DNA of 64,000 nucleotides, from NCBI GenBank assembly GCA_951406725.2, contig OX597835.1, positions 6,076,001-6,140,000 on the forward strand, in the 5' to 3' direction. The translations under genes were made by a program, and so were the position numbers. The DNA comes from Octopus vulgaris (lineage: Eukaryota). Below the pieces are notes generated by a model, which saw nothing but the letters and a program-made list of their open reading frames with translations, was not told the DNA's origin and ran no database searches. This document shows positions 8,658-63,260 of the stretch, one piece after another. Positions within the stretch are counted from its first letter, which is position 1. The number at the start of each line of letters is the position of its first letter.

Positions 8658-9260
8658 TTAATGCGCTTTTTTTTTTCTTAGCCTTGTTGATGAGATTTCT
8701 GATCGAGTTATCTAATAGAATAAATCGTTCCTGCCGTGACCGTAGCATTTATGCTTTAAGTCAATGTCTATTCAAATTCATTATTTGTTACGACCTTTAA
8801 TTTCAAGCAGCAAAGTTAAATTTTAAACAGATTTCATTGCTATTTCTAGTATTTATAGCTAGCACACAATACCCCCATCATATTTTTACAATTGATTTAG
8901 CCAAACTCAGAGCAGTACTCGAAGGTACTCCTGTGTGCTCACAACTATCTCCTTATTTCTAGGTTTTTTTTCAGCTGATAATTGACAAGTTCTTTGCCAG
9001 AGGTCCATGTTCCTTCTCTTGTCTGACCCACAGAGGCGGGTGATTCTTCTTCTTAGACGACTGTTTTTAAGGGTCTATATACCTCCCTTATTTTGTGTGA
9101 GTACAATACGCATACATACGAATCCATTCATTTGTAAAAGTATACATTTTTTTCATTGGTTGTCCTGTATTTTTAAGAAGCTTATAATTATTCCATGACA
9201 ACAATACTCCACTCAGTAGCATGGTTTGTACAACAGATGGTACCCCCGCTTTTAATAAAA

Positions 9261-9483
9261 GGCGGCGAGCTGGCAGAAACGTTAGCACGTCGGGTGAAAT
9301 GCTTTGCGGCATTTCGTCTGCCGCTACGTTCTGTGTTCAAATTCCGCCGAGGTCGACTTTGCCTTTCATCGTTTCGGGGTCGACTAAATAAAGTACCAGT
9401 TACGCACTGGAGTCGATATAATCGACTTAATCCGTTTGTCTGTCCTTGTTTGCCCCCTCTGTGTGTAGCCCCTTGTGGGCAGA
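9261..9483 (+). mobile_element. tRNA-derived SINE family B, near full length
   Basis: GGCGGCGAGCTGGCAGAAACGTTAGC head and gtcgactttgcctttcat core; flanking duplication agatggtaccccc at 9235-9247 and 9484-9496. Confidence 0.88.
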
Positions 9484-9539
9484 AGATGGTACCCCCTCTG
9501 TTGTGGGTAGTTAAAAGGTACAGTCTGGCTATTTATAAA

Positions 9540-28181: not shown

Positions 28182-28539
28182 CATACAGCGTATATGTATA
28201 TAGACTCGTTCATATAAGTGTTTAACCAGAACTAATATCAACCGATCGCGTTTCCTGTCTTTCCGCCATGTTGGTCTTAGTTGAAGGAGTTGTTATTCAA
28301 TTCAAACACAACCCTTGTAAACTTTGAAGAATCAGTAATATTGCGTGATTAAGTAATGTTTGAAGACCAGGATTCTTCTCTTTTAGTCCATTCACAACAC
28401 AAAGCCTAAACATGTACGATTTTAACCTGCCACAATATAATTTGCTATAAAAACACCGAAATTATAAGAAAAATCAAAAGTGATCAAGAAGCAAACATTT
28501 TCAAAACAGTAGTAACACGTTTATGTGCGTAAATATGTG

Positions 28540-30690
28540 TGTGTGTGTGTATAAATCTGTATGTGTGTGTGTGTATAAATCTGTATGTGTGTGTATAAAT
28601 CTGTATGTGTGTGTGTGTATAAATCTGTATGTGTGTGTATAAATCTGTATGTGTGTGTGTGTATAAATCTGTATGTGTGTGTATAAATCTGTATGTATGT
28701 GTGTGTATAAATCTGTATGTGTGTGTGTGTATAAATCTGTATGTGTGTGTGTGTATAAATCTGTATGTGTGTGTGTGTATAAATCTGTATGTGTGTGTGT
28801 GTATAAATCTGTATGTGTGTGTGTATAAATCTGTATGTGTGTGTGTGTATAAATCTGTATGTGTGTGTATAAATCTGTATGTGTGTGTGTGTATAAATCT
28901 GTATGTATGTGTGTGTATAAATCTGTATGTGTGTGTATAAATCTGTATGTGTGTGTGTGTATAAATCTGTATGTGTGTGTATAAATCTGTATGTGTGTGT
29001 GTGTATAAATCTGTATGTATGTGTGTGTATAAATCTGTATGTGTGTGTATAAATCTGTATGTGTGTGTATAAATCTGTATGTGTGTGTGTATAAATCTGT
29101 ATGTGTGTGTATAAATCTGTATGTGTGTGTGTGTGTATAAATCTGTATGTGTGTGTATAAATCTGTATGTGTGTGTGTGTATAAATCTGTATGTGTGTGT
29201 ATAAATCTGTATGTGTGTGTGTGTATAAATCTGTATGTGTGTGTATAAATCTGTATGTCTGTGTGTGTATAAATCTGTGTGTGTGTGTATAAATCTGTAT
29301 GTGTGTGTGTGTATAAATCTGTATGTGTGTGTATAAATCTGTATGTGTGTGTATAAATCTGTATGTGTGTGTGTGTATAAATCTGTATGTGTGTGTATAA
29401 ATCTGTATGTGTGTGTGTGTATAAATCTGTATGTGTGTGTATAAATCTGTATGTGTGTGTGTGTATAAATCTGTATGTGTGTGTATAAATCTGTATGTGT
29501 GTGTGTGTATAAATCTGTATGTGTGTGTATAAATCTGTATGTGTGTGTGTGTATAAATCTGTATGTGTGTGTGTGTATAAATCTGTATGTGTGTGTGTGT
29601 ATAAATCTGTATGTGTGTGTATAAATCTGTATGTGTGTGTGTGTATAAATCTGTATGTGTGTGTGTGTATAAATCTGTATGTGTGTGTATAAATCTGTAT
29701 GTGTGTGTGTGTATAAATCTGTATGTGTGTGTGTGTATAAATCTGTATGTGTGTGTATAAATCTGTGTGTGTGTGTATAAATCTGTATGTGTGTGTATAA
29801 ATCTGTATGTGTGTGTGTGTGTATAAATCTGTATGTGTGTGTGTGTGTATAAATCTGTATGTGTGTGTATAAATCTGTATGTGTGTGTATAAATCTGTAT
29901 GTGTGTGTGTGTGTATAAATCTGTATGTGTGTGTATAAATCTGTATGTGTGTGTGTGTATAAATCTGTATGTGTGTGTATAAATCTGTATGTGTGTGTGT
30001 GTATAAATCTGTATGTGTGTGTATAAATCTGTATGTGTGTGTGTGTATAAATCTGTATGTGTGTGTATAAATCTGTATGTGTGTGTGTGTATAAATCTGT
30101 ATGTGTGTGTATAAATCTGTATGTATGTGTGTGTATAAATCTGTATGTGTGTGTGTGTATAAATCTGTATGTGTGTGTGTGTATAAATCTGTACGTGTGT
30201 GTATAAATCTGTATGTGTGTGTATAAATCTGTATGTATGTGTGTGTATAAATCTGTATGTGTGTGTATAAATCTGTATGTGTGTGTGTGTATAAATCTGT
30301 ATGTGTGTGTATAAATCTGTATGTGTGTGTGTGTATAAATCTGTATGTATGTGTGTGTATAAATCTGTATGTGTGTGTGTGTATAAATCTGTATGTGTGT
30401 GTATAAATCTGTATGTGTGTGTGTGTATAAATCTGTATGTGTGTGTATAAATCTGTATGTGTGTGTGTGTATAAATCTGTATGTGTGTGTATAAATCTGT
30501 ATGTGTGTGTATAAATCTGTATGTGTGTGTATAAATCTGTATGTGTGTGTGTGTGTATAAATCTGTATGTGTGTGTATAAATCTGTATGTGTGTGTATAA
30601 ATCTGTATGTGTGTGTGTGTGTATAAATCTGTATGTATGTGTGTGTATAAATCTGTATGTGTGTGTGTGTATAAATCTGTATGTGTGTGC
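28540..30690. repeat. minisatellite, unit ATAAATCTGTAT(GT)n of 20-26 bp
   Basis: Invariant ataaatct core with a variable (GT) spacer over about 2.1 kb. Confidence 0.97.
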
Positions 30691-30736
30691 GCGTATGAAT
30701 ATGTGTGTGCGAGAGTATGACGAAAACCTAGATGTA

Positions 30737-31388
30737 TACTCTTATACTTGTTTCAGTCATTTGACTGCGGCCATGCTGGAACACCGCCTTTAGTCGAACA
30801 AATCGACCCCAGGACTTATTCTTTGTAAGCCTAGTACTTATTCTATCGGTTTCTTTTGCCGAACCGCTAAGTTACGGGGGCGTAAACACACCACCATCGG
30901 TTGTCAAGCGATATTGGAGTGACAAACACAGATACACACACACACACACACACACACATTATATACATATATATATATATTTCTTTACTGCCCACAAAGG
31001 GCTAAACATAGAGGGGACAAACAAGGACAAAGGAATCACAATGACCCCAGTTGCAAAACTGGTACTTTATTTATCGACCCCGAAAGGATGAAAGGCAAAG
31101 TCGACCTCGGCGGAATTTGAACTCAGAACATAACGACAGACGAAATACCGCTAAACATTTCGCCCGGCGCGCTAACGTTTCTGCCAGCTCGCCACCTTAT
31201 ATACATATATATATATATATATATACGACGGGCTTCTTTCGGTTTCCGTCTACCAAATCCACTCACAAGGCTTTGGTCGGCCCGAGGCTATAGTAGAAGA
31301 CACTTGCCCAAGGTGCCACGCAGTGGGACTGAACCCGGAACCATGTGGCTGGTTAGCAAGCTACTTACCACACAGCCACTCCTGCGCC
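30737..31388 (-). mobile_element. SINE family A with a nested family B copy
   Basis: The two halves of A flank 30979-31196. Confidence 0.88.
30979..31196 (-). mobile_element. SINE family B nested in the (TA)n tract of SINE A
   Basis: Head-to-tail B sequence with (TA)n on both sides. Confidence 0.88.
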
Positions 31389-31487
31389 TATGAAAACAAA
31401 AGAAATAGATTTCAATATCATTAAAATAGAGACCTATACGATATAAAATAGAAGCATGGAACACTCACATACAACACTCGGAGTTTC

Positions 31488-32002
31488 CCGCCGAGGTCGA
31501 CTTTGCCTTTCATTCTTTCGGGGTCGATAAATTAAGTACCAGTTACGCACTGGGGTCGATGTAATCGACTTACTCCGTTTGTCTGTCCTTGTTTGTCCCC
31601 TCTATGTTTAGCCCCTTGTATGTAGTATAGAAATAGGTATTTCATCTGCCGCTACGTTCTGAGTTCAAATTCCGCCGAGGTCGACTTTGCCTTTCATTCT
31701 TTCGGGGTCGATAAATTAAGTACCAGTTACGCACTGGGGTCGATGTAATCGACTTACTCCGTTTGTCTGTCCTTGTTTGTCCCCTCTATGTTTAGCCCCT
31801 TGTATGTAGTATAGAAATAGGTATTTCATCTGCCGCTACGTTCTGAGTTCAAATTCCACCGAGGTCGACTTTGCCTTTCATCCTTTCGGGGTCGATAATT
31901 TAAGTACCAGTTACACACTGGGTCAATGTAATCGACTTAATCCGTTTGTCTATCCTTGTTTGTCCCCTCTATGTTTAGCCCCTTGTGGGCAATAACGAAA
32001 TA
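31488..32002 (+). mobile_element. tandem trimer of headless SINE family B (184 bp period)
   Basis: Junction gaaatAggtatttc at 31635 and 31819. Confidence 0.9.
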
Positions 32003-32677
32003 AGATAGATAGATATACACAAGCACACAGGCGCATATACATACGCAAACACACACACACAAATATACATATTTTTGATGTATGTATGTGTAGCTGGAGC
32101 CGAAAGAGTTAAAAATTCGCTTCTTAATCGCAAATTCTCGGGTTAGAATCCAGCAAGATTTGTGGAACTTTCTTTTTCTATAATCTCAACTCAACCAATG
32201 CTTTATGGGTGAAATGGGATTCACAGAAACTTCGGGTAATGCCGCCAGATGAACAGATGGACTGTACCAGTAATTTTTAAGGCATAGCCTCGTCTCTGAG
32301 TACCACACCAATTCAACCTGAGAAATTACAATAAGTGTACACGAGACTATGGAATACTCATCCACTGGTATTCTAATTCAATGATCAATTGGTTCAGTTG
32401 ATAGCAGAAATTGATATTCATCGTTAAGCTGACAGAGATCCATTTCCTAAACACACACACACATCATAATATATATATATATATATACTAAGCAATAAAG
32501 GGTTTAGCAACGAATTGCCTTACCACAGACCGAATTTAGAAATAGCAGTCAAAGAGTTATAGCTATTTCTTCTACTAAAAAGGGAGATCTCAGTAAAAAA
32601 CACAGCAATTGGAAGGCAGACACAAACAGGTAAGAGAGAATGAATTGACGGCAATCTATCATACAATTTTAAGTTAT

Positions 32678-36740: not shown

Positions 36741-36847
36741 ACTCGTGCTCAGCTCAAAACCTGGATGTTTTGATAGATGACATCATCTCCAAACTTTTAC
36801 AGGGTGCGATAAAATACATCAGGTTCACCATTCTTGATAAGAATACC

Positions 36848-37078
36848 CATTTCTTTACTACCCACAAGGGGCTAAACACAGAGGAGACAAACAAGGACAG
36901 ACCGACGGATTAAGTCGACTACATCGACCCCAGTGCGTAACTGCTACTTAATTTATCGACCCCGAAAGGATGAAAGGCAAAGTCGACCTCGGCAGAATTT
37001 GAACTCAGAACGTAACGCCAGACGAAATACGGCTACGCATTACGCCCGGCGTGCTAACGTTTCAGCCAGCTCGCCGCC
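36848..37078 (-). mobile_element. SINE family B, full length with 17 bp TSD
   Basis: TSD ttcttgataagaatacc at 36831-36847 and 37079-37095. Confidence 0.92.
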
Positions 37079-37331
37079 TTCTTGATAAGAATACCAACAG
37101 ACGCAGAATGAACACCATTTCAGCGATAATGCGAACCAAGGAACAACAAGTGGCAAAATCTTATCTACCAAAATACTCCATTACCATCTGCCAAACTTCT
37201 CTATCACCAAACCAATGACCGTTTAAAATAGGGAAGGTTTTTTTGGTCACAAACCCAATTAAACAGTAACGCCCTCTCAGTTGAACATGACACATTACTA
37301 ATCAAACGAACATTTATGGAAAAAATGTACA

Positions 37332-37709: not shown

Positions 37710-37767
37710 TAATACAACTATACAAATATTTACATGTTGAATGATTTTAATATTTCATTTTGTCTAA

Positions 37768-38350
37768 AGCGACGAGCTAGCAGAATGGTTAGCAAGCCGG
37801 ACAATATATTCTGCGGCATTTCGTCCGTCTTTATGTTCTGAATTCAAATTCCGCTGAGGTCGACTTTGTTTTTCATCCTATCGGAATGGATAAAGTAATT
37901 TATCAGCTGAGAAGTGGGGTCGATGTAAGGGCCTCCCTTCCTCCCCAGAAACTGCTGGTTCTGTGCCAAGTTTTGAAGCCAATATTTCATTTTGTCTGGG
38001 TTAGTATACTTTTGCTTCAGCTATGATCTGACAGACTGTTTTGCGCCATTAAACATGGCGGAGCTCAAATCTGGCCGAGGCTTTGCCGCTTCATTATTTC
38101 AGGGTCAATATAGTAAAGTTCCAGCCAAGTACCAGGGTCGATTTAATCATCGATAAACCACCTTCTCTCTCAATTTATGGCCTTGTACCTATGTAAGGAA
38201 TTATTATTTCAGGATCTGTAAAGCGTTGGATAACCCGCCTTTTATGGTACCGGATACCGTTCCTTCAATATTTAAGTTCCAATCGCAGTCATGTCGACTT
38301 TGTTTTTTATCATTCCAGGGTCGTCAAGATAAGTAACATTCAAATACTGA
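37768..38350 (+). mobile_element. cluster of three older SINE family B copies or fragments
   Basis: Core resembling tcaaat...gtcgactttg...tcat...gggtc recurs at about 37845, 38065 and 38280. Confidence 0.6.
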
Positions 38351-52870: not shown

Positions 52871-53745
52871 TGAGTGGGTGGCAAGTAGCTAGGCATAAGA
52901 AATTGCTTATAGAATGTTTAATATCACTGAAGTCATGACGAAAACATTTCTTAAGCAGACGACACTAATGGAGATTTCTTATATGGTCTTATTTCTTATT
53001 TTCCAGATCGTCGATAGCTTGACTGTTCAGGAGCCAGCTAAGATAACAGCACGCTATGAAGTGTGGAAGTCCGTTGTTTTGGTTCAGAGAGGGTGGCGTG
53101 CATGGAAAGGTAAACATACAACACTACGTCTGGAGACAGTAAAAGTTCTTATGCAAAGCTTATGACCACGGACTCTGTGAACGATGCAAGTGGTGGCCGT
53201 CCAACCACATCCCGATCAACCGAAAATGTGGCAACAGTGCAAGAAATGTTTAATCGTAGCTCCCAAAAATCAACACGTCAAGCAGCTCGTGAAAGTGGAC
53301 TAACAAGACACACAATACGTACGGTTTTGCATAAACAATTGAATTTTCATCCGTGGAAACCCCGTTACGTGCAGGAGCTAAAACCTGAAAACTGTAACTG
53401 CAGAATTCCAGAAGTCTAGATCTCACCCCAAGTGATTTTTACCTGTGAGGTTGCACAAAAAAGGAGGTATACAAGACAAAACATCTCACACTGGAGGACC
53501 TGGGGATACGAATTCAAAAGGTTTTCATGGATATCCTAGAAGATGTCCTTCAGAAGGTTGTTCATTCCATCCCTGGCCGACAGAGGAAACGGGTTCACGC
53601 CAGCCATGCTTACGTTGAAATATGAAGATTTTCTTTCATTTTCTCATGTAATAAAGAACATGTATCATTTGTTTCAATAAATTTGTAAAAGGAATTGGGA
53701 TTTTATTAACAATGTTTAATGCCTACTTACTTTTCACCTACATAC
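52868..53745 (+). mobile_element. internally deleted Tc1/mariner-superfamily transposon (DUF4817/Tc3-like N-terminus)
   Basis: Fragments ARYEVWKSVVLVQRGWR, SVNDASGGRPTTSRSTENV...STRQAARESG...LHKQLNFHPWK and SLDLTPSDFYL*G; degenerate TIRs (aagtagctaggcat / atgcctacttactt). Confidence 0.8.
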
Positions 53746-53812: not shown

Positions 53813-54002
53813 TTGTGGGCAGTAAAGAAATGGGTATTTCGTCTGCCGCTACGTTCTGAGTTCAAATTCCGCCGACGTTGACTTTACCTTTCATCCTTTC
53901 GGGGTCGATGAATTAAGTACAAGTTGCGTACTGGGTTGATTTAATTGACTGGCCCCCTCCCCAAAATATTTGGGCCTTGTGCCTAGAGTAGAAAAGAATA
54001 TT
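53813..54002 (+). mobile_element. SINE B tail joined to a headless SINE B unit with a different tail
   Basis: ttgtgggcagtaaagaaatGggtatttcgtctgccg...ggccccctccccaaaa...gcctagagtagaaaagaata. Confidence 0.85.
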
Positions 54003-54112
54003 GTTCAAATCTTCACAATTTTAGTTGAAACTTTTCTAATCCATTCTACTTTAATCTCTACTATTATAATCTGATTTTAGTCATATTAAGTTAATCCATA
54101 TTATCACATACC

Positions 54113-54342
54113 CATTTCTTTATTACCCACAAGGGGTTAAACATAGAAGGGACAAACAAGGACAGACATAGGTATTAAGTCGATTATATAGACCCCAGTG
54201 CGTAATTGGTACTTAATTTATCGACCCCGAAAGGATGAAAGGTAAAGTCGACCCCGGCGGAATTTGAACTCACAACGTAACGGCAGACGAAATACCGCTA
54301 AGCATTTCGCCCGACGTGCTAACGTTTCTGCCAGCTCTCCGT
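54113..54342 (-). mobile_element. SINE family B, full length with 16 bp TSD
   Basis: catattatcaca(t/c)acc at 54097-54112 and 54343-54358. Confidence 0.9.
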
Positions 54343-54769
54343 CATATTATCACACACCATTATACTATCGCCCAAACTGCTACAGCCACCTGCTGCAATT
54401 TACACTGTTATAATTAATATTAACCAATCTGTGTAACAACGAAGAAGTCTCGTGTTGGAACAGTTTCTAATTAATGTCCTTTTCACGAACAGACAATATC
54501 TTGTGGTAGCATTACCAGCTCTGAGATATTTCAAAGTTGCTCTTCGAGTCTGTGGCTCAAAGTTTTCCGAAATACATTGTCTAATGGAACAGTGTCGACG
54601 TCCAGACTCCCTTATAGGATGTCAAAGAACGTCGTCGCTATTGTCCGATACTAACGTTCTTTAAGATGCAAGGATTGACAGTTGACCTACTAAATATAGT
54701 AGCTAGATCCCCTTCCAATAACATATTATCGCCTGGAAAAATTGAGGTCTACTTTCTGTAACGTGATCA

Positions 54770-58327: not shown

Positions 58328-59398
58328 AGATCTGATCAATAAGTATCGGGACCGTTGTCATAGTAACGAAGCTGAAGCTCGCAAAGTAAAGCCGATTGAC
58401 AAAGATTGAACTTCAGCTCTACTGCGCATGCGTTTTAACGTTCTGGCTCACTTCCCCTGTTTACAGCAGTGTTTGGAAGGAAGGTGTGTAGCTTGTCTTT
58501 GTCGCAATGGCCATGACAGAGAAAGTTGTCATGGCGACACCTGCTGAGAGGCCTTCGCAAAGTTGCAGAAAGCATATGGAGAGTAGTGTATGAGCTGCAC
58601 ACAAGTGTGCGTGTGGTTCAGACGTTTCCAAGATGGCCGAAAAACTGTCGATATTGACGAACGTTCTGGGAGACCTGCAGCAAGCAGAAATGAGAAAAAC
58701 ATCGCAGATGTGCGTGCAGCTGTGAAGGGAAATCGTCGAATCACCATCCGGGAGTTATCGGAGAATTTGCAGATTAGTTACGGTTTAGTTCAGTTCATTG
58801 TTACTGAAGATTTGGATATGAGATGCGTGTTTGCCAAAACTGCTTTCCAAAAAGACACTCGGGTTTCAGTTACACAAGATCTCCTTGATTGTATCGAGAA
58901 CGATAAAAACTTTTTGAAAATTTTGCGGAGGCCTCTGAGCAGGTGTCGACAAGCTTTTAGCAAAATTTGATGCAGATTCTCTGCTCAACTTTCTGTCATG
59001 GTCACGACCCCTATTGATCGGTCCCACTTTTTTTTTTCACAATCCCTTTTGATCGGAATTTCCGCCCCGCCCCCCTTTCCCGATCCCTTTTGATCGGAAT
59101 TCGCTCCCCCTCCTTTTCCCCTTCACTTCTTCCCAAAAAGAAAAGCTCTACTTTGTATTTTGTCCCTTCTGTGTTTAGCCCTGCGTGGCCAATAAAGAAA
59201 TCTGTGATAATCATTGCGATGATCACACGCTACACACCTTCCTTCCAAGTACAGCTGTAAACTGCAGAAGTGAGCTAGAACATTAAAACTCAGTGCGCAT
59301 GCACAGCAGAGTTCAAGGTCAACCTGTGCCAAGCGGTTTTACTCTGCGTGCTTTAGCTTCGTTACTATTACAACAATCCGGATACTTATTAATCAAAC

Positions 59399-59742: not shown

Positions 59743-61277
59743 TTAGTTGGGAGATGTATGCTCTAATAGGGATCGATCTATTTGATAAACAATTATTAAT
59801 ATTGTCAAATATTCCAAATGTATATAGATAATAAAGTAATGACATGTTTTCTATTGTCTGAGTGTATTTTTATATAAACACTCAGAAAGACACCTTGCCA
59901 CTTCACTATTCAAACAGTTTAAATGATAACAACATTCAGGATTATCAGATAGATCGGATTATTACTAACACCAAGTCTCTCACTTCACTGATGGCTCCGG
60001 AAGATACGACCTCTGTCATTCAGAGAAACATAACATTCTTTTAGCATTTTCAGCAAAAGATCGAAATAGGAAAAGTTTTGTAGACACTCCTAGCACATTT
60101 TATTAAAGGATTTCGAACTTCCAACATGTCAACATAATATATTTCCGACGTAATGTATTTGCTATGGACTGAAAGACATTTATAGAATTTTAAAACTGTA
60201 ACAGGAACTGTTTCTAGTTGTTATTTTCCTTTTTCTTTTTTTTTTTTTTCCTACATGTGGTATTTTAGATATGAAAACACAAAGCGTCTCCGTACATGAA
60301 TACATGGAAATATCACGTGTTTTGTGCATGAAGATGAACAGATGAACGTATGATGCATTTCGTAAGTGGTTTTTTGCGTCATTGGTTACACACACCGCCA
60401 ACACCATTCAGTGTTAATTATCTTCGTCTGTATTTAGTTTACAGTTAATTCTGACATGTTGAAAGTTGATAGCGTGGTGAAAGATGTTGGTGGCAGGCGG
60501 GAGGATGGCGGAGTATTTCGGCCGAAATTTATTGAAATATGTTGTAAACGTTGCGTAATTAAATTTTACGAAAATACAGTTTATATTATTCGTATAGCAA
60601 CCAGCTGCTCCCATCTAGGTGTGGCGAACAGGTTAGTCCATGCAATTTCTATCTTACCCTGTAGTTCGTTATTTAATAACATTAAGAAAAAGATAAATAG
60701 AGGAGAAGGGTGAAAGACAAGCACAAACACATACACGTATATACGTGTGTGTGTGTGTGTGCGTATTTGCATGCGTGTGTATACGTGTGTGTATATGTTT
60801 GTGTGTGTGTGTGTATGTGTGTGTATTTCATCCTCTCTCTCTCTCTTCCTGAAGAGCCTGATTAAAAACATCAGTTGAAGCAATTCCACTCTGTCACTGA
60901 ATGAAGCATTCTTGGACAACGCGGCGGCCCCCCAGTCCACTTCATTAAAGCTCTTGATGCTGGCAACTTCAAAGATAATCTCACAGATACCAGAGAAAGA
61001 AAGAAAGAAAGAAAGGAAGAAAGAAACTGTGTAATTGAAGATGTTTAAACGTTGGAACTACAAACCAAACATACAATTCTGCTCAGATGTATTACGTAAC
61101 AACAAATGCAATTTATGATTTGACGGCGATGTTGCTTTATTTTTATTATAAGTAATACGTTGGGGATTTATGAACTCGGTTTTGTAACAATCAACACTTT
61201 TGATAAGTAGCCTTGTTTATTTCTCATCGTAATTAATCACCATTTGCTTTATTTCTCTTTATTTCTCTTACTGTTGC

Positions 61278-61343
<66 letters not shown>

Positions 61344-61378
61344 TTATTATTATTTTTATTATTATTATTATTATTATT

Positions 61379-62656
61379 ACAAACAAGGACAGACAAACGG
61401 ACTCCAGTGCGTAACTGGTACTTATTTAATCGACCCCGAAAGGATGAAAGGCAAGGTCGACCTCGGCGGAATTTGAACTCAGAACGTATAGACTGACGAA
61501 ATACCGATTTCTTTACTACTCACAAGGGGCTAATCACAGAGGGGACAAACAAGGACAGACAAACGGATTAAGTCGATTATATCGACTCCAGTGCGTAACT
61601 GGTACTTATTTAATCGACCCCGAAAGGATGAAAGGCAAGGTCGACCTCGGCGGAATTTGAACTCAGAACGTAAAGACTGACGAAATACCGATTTATTTAC
61701 TACCCAGAAGGAGCTAAGCACAGAGGGGACAAACAAGGACAGACAAACGGATTAAGTCGATTATATCGACCCCAGTGAGTTAATGGTACTTATTTAATTG
61801 ACCCCGAAAGGATGAAAGGCTAAGTCGACCTCGGCGGAATTTGAACTCAGAACGTAAAGACTGACGAAATACCGATTTCTTTACTACCCAGAAGGAGCTA
61901 AGCACAGGGGGGACAAACAAGGACAGACAAACGGATTAAGTCGATTATATCGACCCCAGTGCGTAACTGGTACTTATTTAATCAACCCCGAAAGGATGAA
62001 AGGCTAAGTCGACCTCGGCGGAATTTGAACTCAGAACGTAAAGACTGACGAAATACCGATTTCTTTACTACCCAGAAGGAGCTAAGCACAGAGGGGACAA
62101 ACAAGGACAGACAAACGGATTAAGTCGATTATATCGACCCCAGTGAGTTACTGGTACTTATTTAATTGACCCCGAAAGGATGAAAGGCTAAGTCGACCTC
62201 GGCGGAATTTGAACTCAGAACGTAAAGACTGACGAAATACCGATTTCTTTACTACCCAGAAAGAGCTAAGCACAGGGGGGACAAACAAGGACAGACAAAC
62301 GGATTAAGTCGATTATATCGACCCCAGTGCGTAACTGGTACTTATTTAATCAACCCCGAAAGGATGAAAGGCAAGGTCGACCTCGGCGGAATTTGAACTC
62401 AGAACGTAAAGACTGACGAAATACCGATTTCTTTACTACCCAGAAGGAGCTAAGCACAGAGGGGACAAACAAGGACAGACCAACGGATTAAGTCAGTTAT
62501 ATCGACCCCAGTGCGTAACTGGTACTTATTTAATCAACCCCGAAAGGATGAAAGGCTAAGTCGACCTCGGCGGAATTTGAACCCAGAACGTAGCGGCAGA
62601 TGAAATACCGCTAAGTATTTCGTCCGCCGTACTAACGTTTCTGCCAGCTCACCGCT
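61379..62656 (-). mobile_element. SINE family B tandem array: 1 full, 5 headless 184 bp and 1 partial unit
   Basis: Junction gaaataccg|attt at 61506, 61690, 61874, 62058, 62242 and 62426; head only at 62611-62656. Confidence 0.93.
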
Positions 62657-62657
62657 T

Positions 62658-62798
62658 TAGGACACCGAATACCGCGTTATTAGCTTTGAGATTTCCTCTC
62701 ACTTAGGCGCTGGGGGCATTGTCTGTGAGTCCTTTTATGCATCAAGCGCCTAAATGAGAAGATCTCTTAAGGTTAATAACGCAGTATTCGGTCTTCTA
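62658..62798. mobile_element. MITE-like foldback element with about 50 bp imperfect TIRs
   Basis: accgaataccgcgttattag...tctcacttaggcgct versus agcgcctaaatgaga...ttaataacgcagtattcggt; TA at both ends. Confidence 0.65.
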
Positions 62799-62844
62799 AC
62801 AAGGCATGCATGCTAAGTTGGTTATAAAGATTACCATTTATAAT

Positions 62845-63260
62845 AATGTTTCAAAGGCCAGCAGTTTCAGGGTGGGAGAGTTCATCGATTACATCAACCC
62901 CAGTGCATGACAGGTACTTTATTTTATCGACCCTGAAAGAATGAAAGGCAAAGTCAATCTCGGTGGAATTTGAACTCAGAACATTTAGAACCGGAAGAAA
63001 TGCCGTTAAGCAATTTTTCCGCTGCTTTAGAGTTTTTCCAGCTCACCGCCTGATAAATATTTGTTTCTATTTTAGGTATGAAATCTTGGAAGTTTGAGAA
63101 GTAGAGGTTAGATGATACTATCGATCTCAGTATTTGACTAGTATTTTATTTTATCGATCCCGGAAGGATAAGTGCAAAATTGGCCCTGACAGGATTTGAA
63201 CTCAGAAAGTTAAGCATTGTAACAACATATTGCAAAGAATTTTGTTGGATTTTTCTAATG
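62845..63260 (-). mobile_element. two older SINE family B copies in tandem
   Basis: attttatcga...aag...atttgaactcagaa core at about 62920 and about 63147. Confidence 0.7.

Follow-up and report, generated by a model that had tools for sequence, protein, structure and literature searches.

The tail-to-head junction of a SINE in Octopus vulgaris is real, widespread and precise, and most likely it reflects a hot spot of self-insertion within the head of the SINE, followed by later amplification. The window, which here denotes the whole stretch of 64,000 nucleotides that was analysed, consists of eukaryotic DNA of 36% GC, is rich in repeats and holds nine such junctions at three loci. All nine are in sense orientation and consist of a tail ending in GAAAT, one additional base and GGTATTTC, the latter located at the apex of the head hairpin. 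Six of them lie in an array at 61 kb (linker C, minus strand), two in a shorter array at 31488-32006 (linker A) and one at 53827-53840 (linker G), and a single junction of the 61-kb array carries TAAAT in place of GAAAT. An original prediction, made from the same DNA, had stated that the tail is joined via one base (C, A and G) to ggtatttc at three loci, and indeed all nine junctions are in register. It missed, however, that ordinary single copies of the SINE use the same target.

Anatomy of the SINE and Its Head

The full-length SINE measures ~229 bp and the tandem unit 184 bp. The SINE has an A-like box with a B box at a spacing of 64 nt, a head hairpin, a shared core and one of at least three alternative 3′ ends, of which the end finishing GAAAT is termed here the B tail and the end finishing AGAATATT the A tail. 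In canonical tRNAs the A and B boxes are spaced by ~45 nt. The A-like box was found in five heads and the B-box motif at 13 places in the window, where BLAST detected 28 pieces of the SINE, while 52,085-267,001 contigs matched in three public runs. The target-site duplications of the copies vary between 13 and 17 bp. With its internal boxes, dispersed high copy number and variable duplications, the element shares these traits with tRNA-derived SINEs, and presumably it resembles a SINE that is abundant in octopus and carries a Meta-like core. The ORF listing of the window yielded no partner LINE, and scanning viral, metagenome and prokaryote collections for its pattern returned 0 loci with matching DNA.

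The head of the SINE is not a cloverleaf. It folds as one long hairpin with z-scores of -3.1 and -4.8 in two of four heads, and of -1.3 and -1.5 in the other two; ARAGORN reported 0 tRNAs, and Rfam found neither a tRNA nor a ribozyme in 61200-63200, but only one chance-level microRNA match. Headless units had been predicted to start in the loop of a tRNA-like head, of which the start at the loop edge is borne out, GGTATTTC being the exact 3′ arm of the head hairpin, which begins there. The further proposal that the junction rebuilds a gaaat/atttc mini-hairpin did not hold: the three folds are no stabler than shuffles (z +1.33, -0.24 and +0.53), which rules the mini-hairpin out as a driver, and the full 5-bp stem forms in only one of them. 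By contrast, the argument that GAAAT microhomology is insufficient was correct; microhomology would retain the loop bases and is thereby ruled out as the cause. The relevant shared stretch is the GGTAT(T) that follows the tail, not GAAAT.

Structure of the Arrays

The coordinates of the arrays, of their surroundings and of the single copies are collected in Table 1.

TABLE 1. Positions of SINE arrays, single copies and adjoining elements in the window.
Feature	Position	Strand	Description
61-kb array, unit 1	62426..62656	-	Full SINE: tRNA-like head, long head hairpin, core, B tail
A-like box of 61-kb unit 1	62632-62646		
61-kb array, headless units	61506..62425	-	Five 184-bp units, GGTATTTC at start, tail and C at end
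61-kb array, seventh unit	61379..61505	-	Headless; 18-nt deletion; shortened tail passing into (TAA)n tract
Putative 5′ target copy	62657..62674	-	C and 17 nt beginning GGTATT, immediately 5′ of the array head
MITE-like element	62658..62800	.	~140 bp, palindromic, TA-bounded, arms ~72% alike, adjoins the array head
31-kb array	31488..32006	+	Three units, 5′-truncated, linker A
Heterodimer	53813..54000	+	5′-truncated; B tail end, G, headless copy with A-type 3′ end
37-kb B monomer	36831..37095	-	Tail and G; perfect 17-bp duplication (37079-37095, 36831-36847) starting GGTATT
54-kb B monomer	54097..54358	-	Tail and G; 16-bp duplication (54343-54358, 54097-54112) starting GGT(G/A)T
9-kb B monomer	9235..9496	+	Duplication of at least 13 bp (9235-9247, 9484-9496), GGTAC 4 nt in; tail end shortened
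B monomer in another SINE family	30979..31199	-	Inside (TA)n tail, without GGTAT target; counter-example
Older copy	37749..37997	+	Non-B tail; 17-bp duplication starting AATATTT; control
Lone B tail	59150..59201	+	Followed by non-GGTAT sequence; counter-example

The units of the 61-kb array fall into near-identical pairs, such that units 2 and 4 differ at 3 of 184 positions, units 3 and 5 at 2 of 184 and units 6 and 7 at 1 of 127, and the first two units of the 31-kb array do not differ at all (0/148). These pairs support the later amplification at the DNA level that had been predicted, and the 61-kb array's six junctions do not count as independent events. The arm of the 61-kb headless units differs from the arm of the array's own head at 5 of 18 nt, compared to 8 of 165 elsewhere (P 0.0013), and the changes correspond to common variants of the family in the public contig sets. 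The headless units thus represent a different SINE variant from unit 1. Likewise, unit 3 of the 31-kb array is a separate variant, with 13 differences from unit 2 over 183 positions, including tail variants. At 53813 the junction is present as predicted, with a B-tail part of ~19-31 nt, but the locus is not a dimer of one family, since the B tail is joined to a copy that lacks its head and has an A-type 3′ end. Long overlaps between the arrays show 13-26 differences per 148-184 nt, which makes the arrays as distant from each other as from monomers.

No target-site duplication was found at the 31-kb array. The 61-kb array has lost its 3′ target copy, and no 3′ partner of the putative 5′ copy was found within ~3.4 kb; the spacing of this 5′ copy equals that of the proven duplication of the 37-kb monomer, and it doubles as the end of the MITE-like element, which is present as a single copy in the window.

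The Junction in Public Contig Sets

Three public contig sets, X9 (from organism A, presumably RNA), X5 (from organism C, presumably DNA) and X11 (organism F), were aligned to the 54-kb B monomer. Rows were listed for 20 of the 1076 loose ends, for 15 of the 353 joints and for 12 of the 347 between-letter rows, and the counts are incomplete. At the first G of GGTATTTC, loose ends leading into a B tail with linker A were listed for 336 contigs of X9 and 815 contigs of X5. The former is the largest of the six rows listed for X9; in X5 the ends at the head start amount to 1668 and 1265 contigs, and in X11, where the junction is rare, its end is not among the six rows listed. A joint leading back by 184 nt is among the listed rows of each set, with 1 contig in X11, 4 in X9 and 8 in X5, and the same junction register recurs in all three. 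Among the distinct tail-to-head joints listed, six of eight share this register within 1 nt, several of them with diverged arms, and such recurrence is more than chance. The other two comprise a joint placed 33 nt closer to the head start and a near-full-length one. The former represents a second tail-to-head site at register 54329, shortly past the beginning of the A-like box (2, 6 and 5 contigs listed); in organism F it accounts for 5 contigs among the listed joints, compared to 1 for the main junction. The junction is thus a dominant, but not exclusive, hot spot that is common to more than one organism.

Where contigs end loosely at the junction nucleotide, the sequence goes on into SINE tail (agreement 0.87 in X9; 0.64 in X5, median length 12), whereas true head-start ends continue into unique flanks (agreement 0.45-0.46, median ~250), and free monomers cut at the junction base do not dominate. 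The ratio of depth before and after the loop, a poor measure that carries no weight here, is 0.65 in X9, 0.81 in X5 and 1.03 in X11, which would fit an excess of headless sequence in two of the sets. Only 14 of 12.9 million reads matched this very high-copy SINE in a raw-read DNA run (X21, 2026) that bears the species label of the best-matching run; X21 is uninformative and presumably mislabelled, filtered or from another organism.

Target Sites of Ordinary Copies

Most B copies in the window are found at GGTAT-type targets, which resemble the beginning of GGTATTTC. Both the 37-kb and the 54-kb monomer end in tail-G-GGTAT, a string identical to the G junction at 53813, and in the 54-kb monomer GGTAT is present in the 3′ target copy, compared to GGTGT in the 5′ copy. 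GGT(A/G)(T/C) is located 20-27 nt before the head anchor in four of the five head-bearing B copies, namely at -22 in the 37-kb, -20 in the 54-kb and -27 in the 9-kb monomer, and at -22 in the 61-kb array, where GGTATT is preceded by C, the linker base of this array. The fifth, located in the (TA)n tail of another SINE, does not have it. The motif is absent from this slot in all 12 controls, namely three older heads and nine members of a second SINE family. By chance it would be found in four of five with a nominal probability of ~5e-7, but both motif and slot were picked once the data had been inspected. Moreover, three of the six complete B tails outside junctions are not followed by GGTAT (the end of the 31-kb array and the tails at 30979 and 59201), and the GGTAT target rule of B copies is loose.

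In older or A-type copies (37749-37997, 1274-1285 and 63049-63061) the position of GGTAT is taken by AATATTT, which matches the end of the A tail. AATATTT occupies the slot in two of the three older control heads, and target and tail appear to co-vary between A-type and B copies.

The second SINE family, which we take to be CORE-like, is ~177 bp long with a (TA)n end and is found at 31216-31392 and at least eight further places (773, 5865, 10137, 25852, 35415, 37331, 42892 and 46742); the tail of one of its copies harbours the B monomer at 30979..31199. The window also contains a minisatellite of ~2.2 kb (28524-30709) with ~97 copies of a 22-24-bp unit and, as judged by eye, a possible remnant at 53400-53620 that resembles the 3′ end of a Tc1-like transposase gene.

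Origin of the Junction

We consider it rather probable that the junction arises by self-insertion at a target in the head, likely with read-through re-mobilisation of the dimers, and that unequal DNA exchange follows. In the first step, which the window documents at small n, B copies lie at GGTAT(T) with duplications of 15-17 bp and one variable base after the tail. The target used would then be another copy's head, whether that copy is of the same type or of a related one, as one contig joint suggests. Because the head holds C-GGTATT at the hairpin apex, a new copy at the family target would give tail-base-GGTATTTC, so that the junction is likely the usual 3′ junction of a copy that entered another copy's head by target-primed reverse transcription. 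A full-length self-insertion should have a 5′ junction consisting of ~16 nt of duplicated arm and a fresh head, and this is matched by one row of X5 (54341->54284), in which 16 nt of the head 3′ arm are directly followed by a complete head start at an offset of 24, within the 20-27 nt of ordinary copies. This 5′ junction comes from one listed row of one run (12 of 347 rows listed).

The 61-kb and 31-kb arrays contain no T4 run, so that Pol III could read through the junction from the head of the inserted copy, leaving out the 5′ part of the host. The resulting head-plus-headless RNA would be re-inserted elsewhere, often with 5′ truncation as in the 31-kb and 53.8-kb forms. None of the three junction loci keeps the 5′ head fragment of the host upstream, which counts against self-insertion; for the same reason the loci would be re-mobilised dimers, and the read-through step would be needed every time. 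Alternatively, a seamless 5′ join via the 16-nt homology could lead to the same product, and a precedent for internal annealing of cDNA to the 5′ target is contained in the available part of PMC2912911. Eventually, unequal exchange or slippage in the shared core multiplies the 184-bp unit, as the variant patterns show. As for the source of the GGTAT rule, we lean slightly toward pairing of the read-through RNA with the target over choice by the endonuclease.

The original prediction placed an RNA cut in the anticodon-like loop. Such cleavage is not supported, nor is it needed, since the same tail-base-GGTAT junction occurs with duplications at non-SINE targets, where no SINE RNA is cut. In a linear version of this scheme, the RNA would be cut at the loop of the head hairpin, and from the resulting 5′ end the reverse transcriptase would jump onto another SINE RNA at its 3′ end and add a single untemplated base. 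This would fit a junction located exactly at the boundary of loop and 3′ arm of a stable hairpin, the variation of the linker (C, A, G) and the heterologous partners without host head upstream at all three loci. Template jumping is established for R2 (cited in the available text of PMC2912911), and a joint in one contig of X5 (54241->54297) represents a 55-nt head deletion beginning exactly at the junction nucleotide. On its own, however, the linear scheme leaves unexplained both the monomer duplications that start with GGTAT and the joint of duplicated arm and full head, and the head is no tRNA cloverleaf. It further predicts many monomers truncated at the junction base with unique flanks, whereas the loose ends there mostly lead into tail, and we regard it as improbable. 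The circular version, in which a 184-nt circular RNA undergoes rolling-circle reverse transcription as in retrozymes, is extremely improbable: the intact head of the 61-kb array, the heterologous last unit of the 31-kb array and the B-on-A junction at 53813 could not stem from one circle, and the lack of a hammerhead core contradicts the rolling-circle copying originally suggested. The CUGANGA core is absent from the sense strand of all four elements tested and appears on the antisense strand only via a change specific to the 61-kb array; together with the absence of a ribozyme in Rfam, this rules out a hammerhead or retrozyme identity. A unit size within the retrozyme range of ~170-400 nt (according to the available text of PMC7229834), the identity of the first two 31-kb units and the pairing of tail and head 3′ arm in the 53813 fold would be in keeping with a circle. 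The heterologous partners rule out that one circle was copied at these loci and speak for insert plus host. In addition, since the junction is common in DNA (as in X5), RNA reads that run from tail to head of the SINE are no evidence of circular RNA.

That DNA slippage or unequal crossover within one locus produced the junction, with the GGTATT in the head and the GGTATT after the tail exchanging to duplicate 184 bp and no second insertion, seems improbable to us as well. The homology would be only 6-7 nt, and the units should be of one origin, whereas the 61-kb headless arm differs from the arm of the head, unit 3 of the 31-kb array has a different tail variant and the 53813 locus joins two SINE types. 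Such an exchange has the merit that the target rule alone suffices, and the 61-kb array does show C-GGTATT in its 5′ flank and C as the linker; recombination between target copies was also proposed for bivalve SINE arrays (PMC11481361, in the text available). A unit phylogeny had been suggested for separating one ancestral dimer from recurrent formation. Two trees, which left out 2 and 3 (fragments) of 18 aligned rows, group the 61-kb units with a bootstrap of ~80, but are otherwise star-like and do not separate one from many origins, and a test that held all junction-bearing units as one clade (15 rows, 118 columns) did not reject this clade (p-AU 0.114). Because one origin is not rejected, descent from few masters surely contributes. 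Improbable, by our estimate, is the stricter form in which a single dimer arose by accident and became the master, with differences in linker and host acquired later by mutation and recombination. It agrees with the tree test, with linker A alone dominating the consensus in X9 and X5 and with the occurrence of the junction in at least two organisms, which may indicate that it is old. It is at odds with the three linkers in one window, none of which is a simple CpG decay of another, with hosts that differ and with arrays as far apart as from monomers, and it does not explain the 5′ joint with a full head. Recurrent formation of the junction is likely.

Comparison With Known Systems

Both self-insertion of SINEs and tandem arrays derived from SINEs are known already, but how such an array is first seeded usually goes unexplained. 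Self-insertion hotspots of Alu in sense orientation are described in the accessible part of the LOCATE preprint (bioRxiv 10.1101/2025.02.26.640385). As for these hotspots, sense insertion here would occur at fixed sites in older copies that match both the normal target and the RNA 3′ end ("feedforward"). Sense joins at a fixed internal site were seen for 9/9 junctions in the window and 6/8 listed joints, and this site matches the ordinary target (4/5 copies vs 0/12 controls, with small n and a post hoc motif). Unlike in Alu, where the hotspots are the A-rich linker and tail of low complexity, a complex motif between the A and B boxes of the tRNA-like head is used to a precision of about one base, and what results is a head-plus-headless array of 184-bp units.

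The TSD1-(SINE)n-TSD1 arrays of Scapharca broughtonii, as described in the available text of PMC11481361, are likewise molluscan tRNA-SINE arrays, and they share with the present ones a first unit whose head is complete, the units after it being truncated at one common position in the head. By contrast, their internal tails are truncated and unequal recombination was proposed, whereas here the tails are complete and the junction equals the target motif. [quoted passage not shown] The sections of PMC10702118 available do not give a target-site mechanism, while the arrays described here are short and dispersed and share one recurrent junction. Non-LTR retrozymes (PMC7229834, available text) also form short tandem repeats of comparable unit length in molluscs and other invertebrates, but there is no type I hammerhead per unit in the present arrays, which instead have a Pol III-type head and SINE target-site duplications. 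As an analogy only, the EhSINE1 of Entamoeba relies on the endonuclease of its partner EhLINE1, which according to the available text of PMC1635306 has a loose five-base preference (GCATT); motif and strand context are different here.

Octopus tRNA-SINEs were reported as OK, OR1 and OR2 (Ohshima and Okada, 1994, as cited in the available text of PMC4758252 and PMC4824008). SINEs make up 11.6% of the Octopus vulgaris genome, with recent insertions being mostly unclassified, and the portion of the main text available makes no mention of SINE dimers (PMC13282606). The accessible part of the SPLASH preprint is without a SINE passage, and a literature search, with most subscription papers outside its reach, yielded no account of the junction or of a self-insertion site in a cephalopod SINE.

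A Possible RNA-Guided Target Choice and Significance

A further proposal, which we hold to be unlikely but worth stating, is that the SINE carries its own target preference in its RNA. Read-through dimer transcripts with GGUAUU after the tail would pair with GGTATT targets, including every SINE head, and each self-insertion would create a new head-targeting master, so that target choice would be heritable, RNA-guided and self-amplifying. Three observations hint in this direction: the A-tailed type is found at AATATT, in agreement with the end of its own tail; the second hot spot is similar to a tail repeat; and the sole monomer whose motif copies differ has the base of the junction in its 3′ copy.

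If self-insertion at the head target is true, one target motif would connect ordinary and nested insertions with dimeric masters and nascent satellites within a single, very abundant family, and this connection could be quantified in every assembled genome of the group. As we infer, the splitting of such a family into many apparent subfamilies in automatic repeat libraries would find its explanation as well.
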